Below, one piece after another: positions 12,061 through 54,060 of a stretch of 64,000 nucleotides of DNA. Each line of letters begins with the position of its first letter. The first letter of the stretch is position 1. The notes beneath the pieces are model-generated. The model had not been told where the DNA came from. It did not search any database and worked only from the letters and a program-made list of their open reading frames with translations. Position numbers and translations under genes: made by a program. Where the stretch lies: the NCBI RefSeq assembly GCF_054482595.1, contig NZ_CM137008.1. One strand, given 5' to 3'.

Positions 12061-14883
12061 ATGGATAAGATCGAAGTTCGGGGCGCCCGCACCCATAATC
12101 TCAAAAACATCAACCTCGTTATCCCCCGCGACAAGCTCATTGTCGTGACCGGGCTTTCGGGTTCTGGCAAATCCTCGCTCGCTTTCGACACCTTATATGC
12201 CGAAGGGCAGCGCCGTTACGTTGAATCCCTTTCCGCCTACGCGCGGCAGTTTCTGTCACTGATGGAAAAGCCGGACGTCGATCATATTGAGGGGCTTTCT
12301 CCTGCCATCTCAATTGAGCAGAAATCGACGTCTCATAACCCGCGTTCTACGGTGGGGACAATCACCGAAATCCACGACTATTTGCGTTTGTTGTTCGCCC
12401 GCGTCGGCGAACCGCGCTGTCCGGACCACGACGTCCCGCTGGCGGCGCAAACCGTCAGCCAGATGGTGGATAACGTGCTGTCGCAGCCGGAAGGCAAGCG
12501 TCTGATGCTGCTCGCGCCAATCATTAAAGAGCGCAAAGGCGAACACACCAAAACGCTGGAGAACCTGGCAAGCCAGGGTTACATCCGTGCTCGTATTGAT
12601 GGCGAAGTCTGCGATCTTTCCGATCCGCCGAAACTGGAACTGCAAAAGAAACACACTATTGAAGTGGTGGTTGATCGCTTCAAGGTGCGTGACGATCTTA
12701 CCCAACGTCTTGCGGAGTCGTTTGAAACCGCGCTGGAGCTTTCCGGTGGTACAGCGGTAGTGGCGGATATGGACGACCCGAAAGCGGAAGAGCTGCTGTT
12801 CTCCGCCAACTTCGCCTGCCCAATTTGCGGCTACAGTATGCGTGAACTGGAGCCGCGACTGTTTTCGTTTAACAACCCGGCAGGTGCCTGCCCGACCTGT
12901 GACGGCCTTGGCGTACAGCAATATTTCGATCCTGACCGCGTGATCCAAAACCCCGAGCTGTCACTGGCTGGCGGTGCGATCCGTGGCTGGGATCGCCGCA
13001 ACTTCTATTATTTCCAGATGCTGAAATCGCTGGCAGATCACTATAAGTTCGACGTCGAAGCGCCGTGGGGCAGCCTGAGCGCGAACGTGCATAAAGTGGT
13101 GTTGTACGGTTCTGGCAAAGAAAACATTGAATTCAAATACATGAACGATCGTGGCGATACCTCCATCCGTCGTCATCCGTTCGAAGGCGTGCTGCACAAT
13201 ATGGAGCGCCGTTATAAAGAGACAGAATCCAGTGCGGTACGTGAAGAATTAGCCAAGTTTATCAGCAATCGCCCATGCGCCAGCTGCGAAGGGACGCGTC
13301 TGCGTCGGGAAGCGCGCCACGTTTATGTCGAGAATACGCCGCTGCCTGCTATCTCCGACATGAGCATCGGTCATGCGATGGAATTCTTCAACAATCTCAA
13401 ACTAGCTGGTCAGCGGGCGAAGATTGCAGAAAAAATCCTTAAAGAGATCGGCGATCGTCTGAAATTCCTCGTTAACGTCGGCCTGAATTACCTGACACTT
13501 TCCCGCTCGGCAGAAACACTTTCCGGCGGTGAAGCCCAGCGTATCCGTCTGGCGAGCCAGATTGGTGCGGGCCTGGTTGGCGTTATGTATGTACTGGACG
13601 AGCCGTCTATCGGCCTGCACCAGCGCGATAACGAGCGCCTGTTGGGTACGCTTATCCATCTGCGCGATCTCGGTAATACCGTGATTGTGGTGGAGCATGA
13701 CGAAGACGCAATTCGCGCCGCTGACCATGTGATCGATATCGGTCCTGGTGCGGGTGTTCACGGCGGTGAAGTGGTCGCAGAAGGTCCGCTGGAAGCGATT
13801 ATGGCAGTGCCTGAATCGTTGACCGGGCAGTACATGAGCGGTAAACGCAAGATTGAAGTGCCGAAGAAACGCGTTCCGGCGAATCCAGAAAAAGTGCTGA
13901 AGCTGACAGGTGCACGCGGCAACAACCTGAAGGACGTGACGCTCACGCTGCCAGTCGGTCTGTTTACCTGCATCACAGGGGTTTCAGGTTCCGGTAAATC
14001 GACGCTGATTAACGACACACTGTTCCCGATTGCCCAACGCCAGTTGAATGGTGCGACCATCGCCGAACCGGCACCGTATCGCGATATTCAGGGGCTGGAG
14101 CATTTCGATAAAGTGATCGATATCGACCAAAGCCCAATTGGTCGTACTCCACGTTCTAACCCGGCGACCTATACCGGCGTGTTTACACCTGTGCGCGAAC
14201 TGTTTGCGGGCGTACCGGAATCCCGTGCGCGTGGTTATACGCCAGGACGTTTCAGCTTTAACGTCCGTGGCGGGCGCTGCGAAGCCTGTCAGGGCGACGG
14301 TGTGATCAAAGTGGAGATGCACTTCCTGCCGGATATCTACGTGCCGTGCGATCAGTGCAAAGGTAAACGCTATAACCGTGAAACGCTGGAAATTAAGTAC
14401 AAAGGCAAAACCATCCACGAAGTGCTGGATATGACCATCGAAGAGGCGCGTGAGTTCTTTGATGCGGTGCCAGCTCTGGCGCGTAAGCTGCAAACGTTGA
14501 TGGACGTTGGTCTGACGTACATTCGCCTGGGGCAGTCCGCAACCACACTTTCTGGTGGTGAAGCCCAGCGCGTGAAGCTGGCGCGTGAGCTGTCAAAACG
14601 CGGCACCGGGCAGACGCTGTATATTCTCGACGAGCCGACCACCGGTCTGCACTTCGCCGATATTCAGCAACTCCTCGACGTGCTGCATAAACTGCGCGAT
14701 CAGGGCAATACCATTGTGGTGATTGAGCACAATCTCGACGTGATCAAAACCGCTGACTGGATTGTCGACCTGGGACCAGAAGGCGGCAGTGGCGGCGGCG
14801 AAATCCTCGTCTCCGGTACGCCAGAAACCGTCGCGGAGTGCGAAGCTTCGCATACGGCACGCTTCCTCAAGCCGATGCTGTAA
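12061..14883 (+). CDS. uvrA: Excinuclease ABC subunit A
   Basis: 940-aa ORF with two ABC ATPase modules (Walker [15 protein letters not shown] and [13 protein letters not shown]) and zinc-finger cysteines. Confidence 0.98.
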
Positions 14884-21738: not shown

Positions 21739-22722
21739 ATGGCAACACGAATTGAATTTCACAAGCACGGTGGCCCGGAAGTACTTCAAGCCGTAGAGTT
21801 CACTCCTGCCGATCCGGCGGAGAATGAAATCCAGGTCGAAAATAAAGCCATCGGCATCAATTTTATCGACACATATATCCGCAGCGGCCTTTACCCGCCG
21901 CCATCGCTACCCAGCGGATTAGGTACCGAAGCGGCAGGCATCGTGAGTAAAGTCGGCAGTGGTGTAAAGCATATTAAGGCAGGCGATCGTGTAGTCTATG
22001 CGCAGTCGGCGTTAGGCGCTTACAGCTCTGTGCATAACATTATTGCGGATAAAGCGGCGATTCTGCCTGCGGCAATTTCTTTTGAGCAAGCTGCGGCATC
22101 CTTCCTGAAAGGCTTAACGGTTTATTATCTGCTGCGCAAAACCTATGAAATTAAACCCGATGAGCAGTTCCTGTTCCACGCAGCAGCTGGCGGCGTTGGC
22201 TTGATTGCCTGCCAGTGGGCAAAAGCCCTGGGCGCGAAACTTATCGGCACCGTAGGAACTGCGCAAAAAGCGCAGAGCGCGCTAAAAGCGGGCGCGTGGC
22301 AGGTTATTAACTATCGTGAAGAGAATCTGGTCGAGCGGTTAAAAGAGATCACCGGTGGTAAGAAAGTGCGCGTAGTGTACGATTCCGTGGGCAGAGACAC
22401 CTGGGAACGGTCGCTGGATTGCCTGCAACGCCGCGGCTTAATGGTGAGTTTTGGCAACTCATCAGGTGCGGTTACCGGTGTGAACTTAGGCATTCTCAAT
22501 CAGAAAGGCTCGTTGTATGTGACACGCCCTTCCCTGCAAGGCTATATCACCACGCGGGAGGAATTAACCGAGGCCAGTAATGAACTGTTCTCTTTGATTG
22601 CCAGCGGTGTGATTAAGGTCGATGTCGCCGAGCAGCAGAAATATCCGCTGAAGGATGCGCAGCGTGCGCATGAGGTTCTGGAAAGCCGGGCGACGCAAGG
22701 TTCCAGCCTGTTGATTCCATAA
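21739..22722 (+). CDS. qor: NADPH:quinone oxidoreductase (zeta-crystallin-like MDR)
   Basis: 327-aa product from ATG at 21739 (MATRIEFHKHGGPEVL...), GGAGGA RBS; GxGxxG nucleotide motif AAAGGVG. Confidence 0.93.
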   Translation: MATRIEFHKHGGPEVLQAVEFTPADPAENEIQVENKAIGINFIDTYIRSGLYPPPSLPSGLGTEAAGIVSKVGSGVKHIKAGDRVVYAQSALGAYSSVHNIIADKAAILPAAISFEQAAASFLKGLTVYYLLRKTYEIKPDEQFLFHAAAGGVGLIACQWAKALGAKLIGTVGTAQKAQSALKAGAWQVINYREENLVERLKEITGGKKVRVVYDSVGRDTWERSLDCLQRRGLMVSFGNSSGAVTGVNLGILNQKGSLYVTRPSLQGYITTREELTEASNELFSLIASGVIKVDVAEQQKYPLKDAQRAHEVLESRATQGSSLLIP

Positions 22723-22761
22723 AAGAAATAGGGCTTCCACCTGGGAAGCCCTTTCTTTTTA
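22722..22761 (+). terminator. Rho-independent terminator of qor
   Basis: AAAGAAATAGGGCTTCC-ACCTG-GGAAGCCCTTTCTTTTT. Confidence 0.8.
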
Positions 22762-22887
22762 TAGTTCGGCTGTATGTAGGGTACAGCACGATGAATCTGT
22801 TAGAGGCGCAATAGTGACAGATTTGATTATCAATTCCTATTTTGTTCTAAGGATAAAACCTTAGGTTGTGATCATCCGCACAATCCC

Positions 22888-23130
22888 TTAGTAACGCCAG
22901 CGGTCATAACGCTGATATTTAGGCACTTTTGGTGCTTTAATCGCCTTAATAACCCACACCACCGCAATCGCCAGGAGTAACCACGGCAGCAACTTAATCA
23001 TCAATGCCAGCATACCGCCGAGGAACATAATGGCCGTCGCCACAACCAGCGCGGCGATAATGCCCAGCAACGAAACGCCGGTGACCATCAGCATGACAAA
23101 AAAGCCAATCACAAAAAGTAGTTCCAGCAT
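22888..23130 (-). CDS. pspG: Phage-shock protein G (small membrane protein)
   Basis: 80-aa hydrophobic product from internal ATG (MLELLFVIGFFVML...); the 150-aa track ORF is an extension. Confidence 0.85.
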   Translation of the reverse strand: MLELLFVIGFFVMLMVTGVSLLGIIAALVVATAIMFLGGMLALMIKLLPWLLLAIAVVWVIKAIKAPKVPKYQRYDRWRY

Positions 23131-23160
23131 GATGCTCTCCCAAATATGAAATCTCTTGCA

Positions 23161-23181
23161 GGCATTACAAGAATCATGCCA
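23161..23181 (-). promoter_or_regulatory. Sigma54-type (-24/-12) promoter upstream of pspG
   Basis: Minus-strand TGGCATG-ATTC-TTGT matches TGGCACG-N4-TTGC at 13 of 15 positions, about 30-50 bp upstream of the pspG ATG. Confidence 0.5.
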
Positions 23182-23263
23182 AAAATAATCTATTGATTTA
23201 ACAGCAAAACGCCCCGCGAATTTGCGCAGGGCGTGGTGAATTTGACTACTTTTTGGTGAAAAG

Positions 23264-24307
23264 TTAACGCTTATCCGCCACCAGTTTGAGCGCGTGTTCC
23301 AGCACGTTAATGTCAGCACCCGCTTTATGGGCATTTTCACTTAAATAACGCCGCCACTGCCGCGCGCCAGGAATACCCTGGAACAAGCCCAGCATATGCC
23401 GGGTAATATGACCGAGATACGTCCCCTGGCTGAGTTCACACTCAATGTACGGATACATGGCGCGCACTACCGCCACCGGATCGGCATCGGTATCCGAGGA
23501 ACCAAAGATCTCCCGGTCTACCGCCGCCAGAATACCCGGATTCTGATACGCCTCGCGCCCGACCATCACGCCATCCATATGTTGCAAATGCGCTTTAGCT
23601 TCTTCCAGCGACTTGATGCCACCGTTAATGGACATTGTCAGATGCGGAAAGTCACGCTTCAGTTGATACACACGCGGATAATCGAGCGGCGGGATTTCAC
23701 GGTTTTCTTTCGGGCTTAACCCCGAAAGCCAGGCTTTACGTGCATGGATGATGAACATCTCACACTCGCCTTTGCCGGAAACGGTGTTGATGAAATCGCA
23801 GAGAAATTCATAGCTGTCCTGGTCATCGATGCCAATACGCGTTTTCACCGTCACCGGAATCGACACCACATCGCGCATCGCTTTCACGCAGTCGGCAACC
23901 AGCTGCGCATTACCCATCAGACACGCACCAAACATGCCGTTCTGCACCCGGTCAGACGGGCAGCCGACATTCAGGTTGATCTCATCATATCCGCGCGCTT
24001 CTGCCAGCTTCGCACACTGTGCCAGCGCCGCCGGATCGCTACCGCCCAGTTGCAACGCTACCGGATGTTCTTCTTCACTGTACGCCAGATAATCACCTTT
24101 ACCGTGAATAATCGCCCCTGTGGTCACCATTTCGGTATACAGCAACGTATTGCGGGAAAGCAGACGCAAGAAATAGCGGCAATGTCTGTCCGTCCAGTCG
24201 AGCATTGGTGCAACGCTAAACCGACCACTCCAGTGAACGTCAGTTTTTTCAGGCATTGCGCTGGTTTGGTTGATTTTTTGCATTTCAGAATTACCGTGCA
24301 TTTTCAA
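23264..24307 (-). CDS. dusA: tRNA-dihydrouridine synthase A
   Basis: 347-aa ORF with Dus-family FMN-binding motifs (…[14 protein letters not shown]…, …INLNVGCPS…); exact start uncertain. Confidence 0.88.
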
Positions 24308-51437: not shown

Positions 51438-51747
51438 AACAATTTCCCTTCATTGAATGAATGGAGATTTACCCAAAAACATTTCGGGCGGGATCGAGTA
51501 TACACAACTAAAGCATACGAATTACGGCGCGGGGAATTAGCGATGGCGTTTTAGGATAATTGGAATGAATATCAAATATAAGTTTCAACTTATATTTAAA
51601 TAACAATAAAAATCATAAACTTAAAATAAAAACAAAAGTAATTAATCTGCGTATTTTCCGAAATAAACAACGATTAAAAATCTATTTTAGGATTAACCTC
51701 ACGGTATGATTTCCGTTAAATCACAGACAAGGGGATTTATCTGATAA

Positions 51748-51776
51748 AACAATGCCGACATAACGTCGGCATTGTT
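51748..51776. terminator. 12-bp perfect palindrome; possible pgi terminator or protein-binding site
   Basis: AACAATGCCGAC-ATAAC-GTCGGCATTGTT; on the minus strand followed by UUAUCAGAUAAAUC. Confidence 0.4.
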
Positions 51777-51839
51777 ATTAAGGTTATTTAATCAATCGTG
51801 CTATGCATTAATTGCCGAATACGATGTACATATCGGCAT

Positions 51840-51945
<106 letters not shown>

Positions 51946-53599: not shown

Positions 53600-53839
53600 T
53601 AGCAATACTCTTCTGATTTTGAGAATTGTGACTTTGGAAGATTGTAGCGCCAGTCACAGAAAAATGTGATGGTTTTAGTGCCGTTAGCGTAATGTTGAGT
53701 GTAAACCCTTAGCGCAGTGAAGCATTTATTAGCTGAACTACTGACCGCCAGGAGTGGATGAAAAATCCGCATGACCCCGTCGTTGACAACCGCCCCGCTC
53801 ACCCTTTATTTATAAATGTACTACCTGCGCTAGCGCAGG

Positions 53840-54060
53840 CCAGAAGAGGCGCGTTGCCCAAGTAACGGTGTTGGAGGAGCCAGTCCTGTGATAACACCTG
53901 AGGGGGTGCATCGCCGAGGTGATTGAACGGCTGGCCACGTTCATCATCGGCTACAGGGGCTGAATCCCCTGGGTTGTCACCAGAAGCGTTCGCAGTCGGG
54001 CGTTTCGCAAGTGGTGGAGCACTTCTGGGTGAAAATAGTAGCGAAGTATCGCTCTGCGCC
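53840..54060 (+). promoter_or_regulatory. lysC leader, expected lysine riboswitch (boundaries approximate)
   Basis: About 300-nt structured leader upstream of lysC containing GAGGCGC and GGAGGAGC segments; E. coli lysC is known to carry a LYS riboswitch here. Confidence 0.5.

Follow-up and report, generated by a model that had tools for sequence, protein, structure and literature searches.

How pspG is switched on, and whether its expression is independent of the upstream gene dusA, is the question raised by a short spacer within a 64,000-nt stretch of DNA (hereafter, the window). An original prediction, made from the letters of the window, had placed a sigma-54-type promoter for pspG in this spacer, together with a short start of PspG and an enhancer-dependent expression not relying on dusA. 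The locus belongs to the Escherichia coli chromosome, where the RefSeq annotation of an identical strain gives the gene order dnaB-qorA-pspG-dusA-DUF2713 gene. The open reading frame named dusA in that annotation (23264..24307, minus strand) ends at 23264, and the ATG of pspG occupies 23130-23128 on the minus strand; hence, 23131-23263 is the exact 133-bp dusA-pspG spacer. In 5,424 of 5,426 E. coli genomes, a 601-bp query around it found a match spanning 80% or more of the query, with 100% identity to several complete genomes, e.g., strain XH990. The strain of the window is not K-12, and it differs from MG1655 at only 7 positions in the interval that begins 36 nt before the dusA stop codon and takes in the whole pspG-qorA spacer. 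Within the control region, these differences comprise three terminator-loop bases and one base at -5, while every motif is identical—so that experiments performed in MG1655 carry over directly to the window. The features of the region are listed in Table 1, with spacer positions numbered relative to the predicted transcription start on the minus strand. The promoter of E. coli pspG (yjbO) was reportedly described by Lloyd and co-workers in 2004. A sigma-54-, PspF- and IHF-dependent pspG promoter has been known since that year and was confirmed by genome-wide binding maps, and we are highly confident that the spacer constitutes the complete known control region of pspG, which belongs to the phage-shock (PspF) regulon. 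The value of the present analysis for annotation lies in placing the promoter, IHF site, terminator and candidate enhancer to the base in this strain, and in fixing the start of the 80-aa PspG against a misleading 150-aa open reading frame.

Table 1. Features of the dusA-pspG spacer and its borders (coordinates in the window; positions relative to the predicted +1)
Feature	Coordinates	Strand	Position	Basis or remarks
dusA stop codon TAA	23264..23266	(-)		Upstream spacer boundary; open reading frame and RefSeq
Candidate PspF enhancer (UAS)	23234..23258	(-)	-103 to -79	Three half-sites 10 bp apart
Half-site CACCA	23258-23254	(-)	-103 to -99
Dyad TAGTCAAATTCACCA	23248-23234	(-)	-93 to -79	Half-sites TAGTC (23248-23244) and CACCA (23238-23234)
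dusA intrinsic terminator	23199..23234	(-)		10-bp G+C-rich stem (23234-23209), loop CAAATT, tail TTTGCTGTTA
IHF core consensus AATCAATAGATTA (WATCAANNNNTTR)	23186..23198	(-)	-43 to -31	Exact consensus match
Sigma-54 -24/-12 promoter 17-mer TTGGCATGATTCTTGTA	23166..23182	(-)	-27 to -11	Pattern, PSSM, ChIP-seq identity
Predicted transcription start	23155..23155	(-)	+1	-24/-12 geometry; 25 nt before ATG
Shine-Dalgarno GGGAGAG	23135..23141	(-)		Sequence; near-universal at the same place in orthologous loci
pspG CDS (80 aa and stop)	22888..23130	(-)		Open reading frame, RefSeq, tblastn

The core of the promoter motif, TGGCATGATTCTTGT, was found once, on the minus strand at 23167-23181. The original prediction had drawn it at 23161-23181, correctly as to its presence and strand but 6 nt too long on the 3' side. 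Compared with YTGGCACGrNNNTTGCW, where GG and GC doublets stand 10 bp apart, the motif displays GG at 23180/23179 (-25/-24) and GT, instead of GC, at 23168/23167 (-13/-12), with the canonical 10-bp spacing kept. The close fit to the -24/-12 consensus claimed for it was borne out by this geometry and by a scan with a position-specific scoring matrix (PSSM), the check proposed along with the original prediction. Trained on 41 further intergenic sigma-54 sites taken from the ChIP-seq data of Bonocora et al. 2015 (their Table 1), the matrix scored the pspG motif at 17.2 bits—rank 1 of approximately 128,000 positions, with a training median of 15.7 bits. Taken alone, the motif is only suggestive and does not exceed chance: the pattern TGGCAYN5TTGY has 0.87 matches expected per 64 kb and occurred at least once in 63 of 100 shuffles, and a score of 17.2 bits was reached somewhere in 11.5% of shuffled windows (20.5% when pspA was also omitted from the PSSM). 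What lifts the motif beyond chance is its placement, its orientation, its conservation in all 80 orthologous loci examined and the published binding data. The second and third PSSM matches, at 4123-4139 (-) and 14476-14492 (+), scored 14.9 and 14.4 bits, both lie within long open reading frames and are probably chance matches. Four candidates elsewhere in the window (these two, 32240-32256 and 31546-31562) were rejected as real sigma-54 sites, as none of them appears in the ChIP-seq tables.

The published binding data bear directly on this promoter. Letter for letter, the 17-mer is the sigma-54 site OS40 identified by ChIP-seq in MG1655 (Bonocora et al. 2015), and the surrounding region is identical to that of MG1655 bar 4 bases, which confirms the sigma-54 promoter assigned to pspG. 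The OS40 entry names pspG as the downstream gene, predicts a start 25 nt before it and describes the promoter as 'experimentally confirmed in EcoCyc'; OS40 is also the sole high-stringency site in the MG1655 interval matching the window (Bonocora et al. 2015). The start in Table 1 was placed by the same rule, which sets it 19 bp past the centre of the motif (Bonocora et al. 2015). The orthologous site of Salmonella Typhimurium, TGGCATGATTTTTGTAAG, was bound by sigma-54 in ChIP-chip experiments (Samuels et al. 2013), and in vitro SELEX with the sigma-54 holoenzyme yielded a peak within the dusA-pspG spacer. Moreover, overexpression of sigma-54 induces few genes, pspG among them, and pspG is listed as PspF-regulated.

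A PspG scan of a species-representative genome collection gave access to 80 loci in more than 20 genera, including Escherichia, Citrobacter, Salmonella, Enterobacter, Klebsiella, Raoultella, Kluyvera, Leclercia and others, as well as Yersinia, Rahnella, Biostraticola and Brenneria. In every one of these loci, a sigma-54-type 17-mer on the same strand was the best PSSM match upstream of pspG, with scores of 15-19 bits in 79 of the 80; the exception, Citrobacter werkmanii, scored 10.4 bits, with TTGTCA replacing TTGGCA. Both the orientation of the promoter and its distance to the gene are conserved among orthologues; in nearly all Enterobacteriaceae, 34-46 nt separate the 3' end of the 17-mer from the ATG. 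The gap is 35 nt in E. coli, whereas it extends to 68-69 nt in two sampled Salmonella subspecies, S. enterica subsp. arizonae and subsp. diarizonae. A 33-sequence alignment at the level of genera contained the invariant promoter columns TGGCA.G..T.TTG, in addition to invariant CA....TA in the IHF core and C, T.GT and C.A in the three half-sites of the candidate enhancer.

These results bear on a first alternative, namely that the site is inert or a product of chance and that pspG owes its transcription to dusA read-through or to a sigma-70 promoter that escaped recognition. Most of the 135 sigma-54 sites detected by ChIP-seq are indeed intragenic and obscure in function (Bonocora et al. 2015), and the motif as such falls within chance, as indicated above. 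We nevertheless regard this alternative as very improbable: the site is correctly oriented at a conserved distance from the ATG, the IHF and UAS elements are co-conserved with it at fixed spacing, pspG responds to sigma-54 overexpression, and a covarying terminator (see below) separates dusA from pspG. Likewise, promoter prediction found no sigma-70-like site on the pspG strand between 22700 and 23700.

A sigma-54 promoter that answers to PspF would be expected to carry an upstream activator sequence, and the search for such a UAS and for an IHF site, also proposed with the original prediction, returned both: a UAS-like block at -103 to -79 and an IHF consensus at -43 to -31. The UAS was located in the spacer, starting 5 nt past the stop codon (23258-23234), and not inside the 3' end of dusA as had been anticipated. 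With a UAS-like element in the spacer, the absence of a PspF-type UAS, which would have counted against the original prediction, does not apply. Within the block, TTCACCA forms a direct repeat with 20-bp spacing. A pattern derived from the pspG orthologues alone, CRCYA-N5-TVGTB-N5-SRCYA, had a single match in the 3-kb MG1655 pspF-pspA locus—CGCCACTTGTTAGTGTAATTCGCTA, which spans the interval from 89 to 65 nt upstream of the 17-mer of the pspA sigma-54 promoter. A narrower pattern, CRCYA-N5-TRGTS-N5-CRCYA, was unique in the window against 0.01 matches expected, a figure that is partly circular since the pattern was derived from both the pspG and pspA promoters. By pattern, a PspF-type UAS is thus present in the range of approximately 80-130 bp upstream, with a single match in each of the two loci against 0.00-0.01 expected. 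A fourth PspF half-site at the dusA stop codon was considered and rejected, as GTTAA (23268-23264) matches 0 of 5 positions. From its conservation and its similarity to the pspA upstream region, we infer which bases of the block PspF contacts.

This reading agrees with the literature, in which the UASs bound by PspF are those of pspA and pspG, its only two targets, with one UAS and a 20-fold induction for pspG, and two UASs and a 100-fold induction for pspA. Deletion of the pspG promoter region was found to alter PspF dynamics; the limits of the deleted regulatory region are not given as coordinates in the supplementary material of Mehta et al. 2013. The comparison with the pspF-pspA intergenic region of E. 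coli is instructive in several respects. The sigma-54 promoter of pspA, TTGGCACGCAAATTGTA, shares the unusual TTGT at -12, an AAATCAA-type IHF site precedes its 17-mer by 18 nt, and half-sites of the CRCYA and TRGTS types recur at 10-bp spacing. However, pspA possesses four half-sites (TGATG-CGCCA-TAGTG-CGCTA) making up two dyads, whereas pspG has three, i.e., one dyad plus an extra half-site—a difference in line with the 'two UASs versus one' of the literature. The dyad-to-promoter distances also differ, with 79 and 99 nt in pspA versus 66 nt in pspG, and the enhancer of pspA also serves as operator for the divergent pspF, whereas that of pspG would lie in the 3' untranslated region (UTR) of dusA. 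The pspG promoter of E. coli MG1655 itself is the same element as that of the window, with an identical 17-mer and nothing functional differing.

Two other explanations of the conserved block were weighed. Firstly, it could be the target of another enhancer-binding protein, e.g., NtrC, and not of PspF. The CACCA half-sites may loosely resemble the NtrC motif TGCACCA. In a published genomic SELEX screen, NtrC as well as the sigma-54 holoenzyme gave a peak in the dusA-pspG spacer. Against such a role, the same arrangement of three half-sites with 10-bp spacing exists upstream of pspA, the other PspF target, and the literature has PspF binding the pspG UAS and describes the induction as PspF-dependent; hence, we consider an NtrC-type target highly unlikely. 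Secondly, the block could act as an RNA element of the dusA 3' UTR, contributing to stability or giving rise to a small RNA, instead of as a DNA enhancer. It is transcribed within the dusA mRNA, 5' of the terminator, and a small A/U hairpin (ACUUUU...AAAAGU) is predicted there in this strain. This hairpin is lost in other genera, and was rejected as a functional RNA for that reason; an Rfam search likewise gave no match in the block. Furthermore, three conserved 5-bp blocks with a 10-bp period are the usual mark of a protein touching DNA along one face of the helix, and the block resembles the pspA upstream region, which does not lie in a 3' UTR. We therefore attach hardly any weight to a function of the block at the RNA level, and retain its reading as a PspF enhancer.

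Between this candidate enhancer and the promoter lies the predicted IHF site, an exact and conserved match at a fixed distance. The consensus WATCAANNNNTTR occurs 8 times in the window versus 3 expected, a count that is weak alone. For both the sigma-54 and the IHF motif, the individual consensus statistics are unconvincing, and it is their conservation and position that carry the case. In 75 of 81 sequences, 66-67 nt separate the start of the dyad from the 17-mer, despite the turnover of the terminator stem sequence in between; for the start of the IHF core, the corresponding distance is 16-17 nt in 63 of the 81. Five sequences from outside the Enterobacteriaceae (Yersinia, Rahnella, Biostraticola and Brenneria) show an IHF-to-promoter distance of 26-27 nt, longer by 10-11 bp, i.e., one helical turn. 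In Yersinia and Rahnella, the dyad-to-promoter distance grows to 88 nt (+22 nt), corresponding to two more turns. An activation loop bent by IHF predicts that helical phase is preserved, and the spacing data fit this expectation. The whole architecture is kept at near-fixed spacing from Escherichia to Klebsiella. Taken together, the pspA-like upstream sequence and the IHF consensus, both conserved, speak for the enhancer dependence that had been proposed for pspG.

The spacer also harbors a rho-independent terminator of dusA, with the hairpin ACGCCCTGCG-CAAATT-CGCGGGGCGT followed by TTTGCTGTT. A terminator scan recovered a stem of 10 pairs (8 of them G-C) with a T run after it, and RNA folding returned -21.5 kcal/mol (z = -3.2). 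The stem sequence turns over across genera while its pairing is kept: 87% of the cells in the alignment are paired, falling to 31-49% in controls with the partner slid, and compensatory changes affect 9 of the 10 stem pairs—a value that none of 500 shuffles equalled. The terminator is situated between the enhancer and the IHF site, with the final base of the UAS included in the 5' arm of its stem. With a covarying terminator ahead of the pspG promoter, dusA transcripts are expected to end upstream of that promoter, which supports, on sequence grounds, the proposed independence of pspG expression from dusA.

The resulting arrangement is peculiar in that the candidate PspF enhancer would lie within the dusA 3' UTR, 5' of the dusA terminator, with the terminator located inside the enhancer-promoter loop. 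Because the enhancer is part of the transcribed 3' UTR, polymerases completing dusA must traverse it. They might displace enhancer-bound PspF or, conversely, a PspF roadblock might aid termination, in which case the overlap would be more than compaction. We deem this improbable; if true, transcription of a tRNA-modification gene would be coupled to the membrane-stress response.

Combining these elements with the literature, the standard model of such promoters may be proposed for the spacer. The sigma-54 RNA polymerase would sit on the 17-mer as a closed complex that cannot open the DNA alone. The AAA+ activator PspF would bind the three half-sites (around -90), exposed on one helix face, and IHF would bend the DNA at AATCAATAGATTA (around -37), thereby carrying PspF to the polymerase. 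PspF would then hydrolyse ATP and open the promoter, with transcription beginning at about 23155 and producing a 25-nt leader with a strong Shine-Dalgarno sequence ahead of the 80-aa PspG. In the absence of membrane stress, PspA would keep PspF inactive and pspG silent; under stress, PspA would release PspF. Transcripts of dusA would stop at the hairpin inside the enhancer-promoter loop, leaving pspG insulated from dusA. The motifs, their conservation and spacing, and the covariation of the terminator derive from this analysis; sigma-54 occupancy, induction by secretin or membrane stress, the dependence on PspF and IHF, and repression by PspA come from the literature. For the dependence on PspF and IHF, including IHF-assisted activation at the psp promoters, we draw on papers citing the work of Lloyd and co-workers.

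The start codon of pspG could likewise be settled. RefSeq annotates the gene as 243 nt (80 aa), the conserved GGGAGAG is positioned 5-11 nt before the ATG, and tblastn matches to orthologues begin at PspG residue 1. An in-frame extension of 70 codons upstream is open in the window; almost every other locus carries a stop codon in this frame, 4-47 codons ahead of the ATG. The 150-aa open reading frame starting from GTG at 23340 was accordingly discarded as an open-frame artefact, being interrupted elsewhere, with both the Shine-Dalgarno sequence and the similarity fitting the 80-aa product. The short start advanced in the original prediction is upheld by all of these lines of evidence.

The -12 doublet of the promoter deserves separate mention. 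It reads GT in 76 of 81 pspG promoters, including that of the window, and the consensus C is found in just one, that of S. enterica subsp. diarizonae, which stands alone among the 81 in carrying TTGC at -12. The same GT is present in E. coli pspA and, by our own reading of the table, in only 4 of the 135 ChIP-seq sigma-54 sites, with both PspF-dependent promoters belonging to these four. GT at -12 may be a regulon-specific feature of the core promoter, and there is a small chance that the conserved, non-consensus T tunes the responsiveness to PspF specifically.

Finally, we recorded other features in the window. The small RNA PspH (b4758 in MG1655) maps to 22721-22831 (-), just downstream of pspG, with a sequence identical to that of MG1655; the literature describes it as sponging Spot 42 (Spf), possibly with its own promoter. 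PspH ends in a bidirectional terminator (22730-22752) that is common to the convergent qorA. Rfam matches at gathering score comprised the sraL sRNA (7866-8006), a lysine riboswitch (53836-54032), STnc430 (51634-51783) and four REP-derived naRNA4 elements (557-628, 37949-38019, 42178-42248 and 51849-51920). Upstream of dusA, the 340-aa open reading frame at 24664-25686 (-) is annotated in the identical strain as a DUF2713 family protein, and its N-terminal region contains short repeats of the DATKDKLDN, DATNDKLDN and GTIKDKLNN type.
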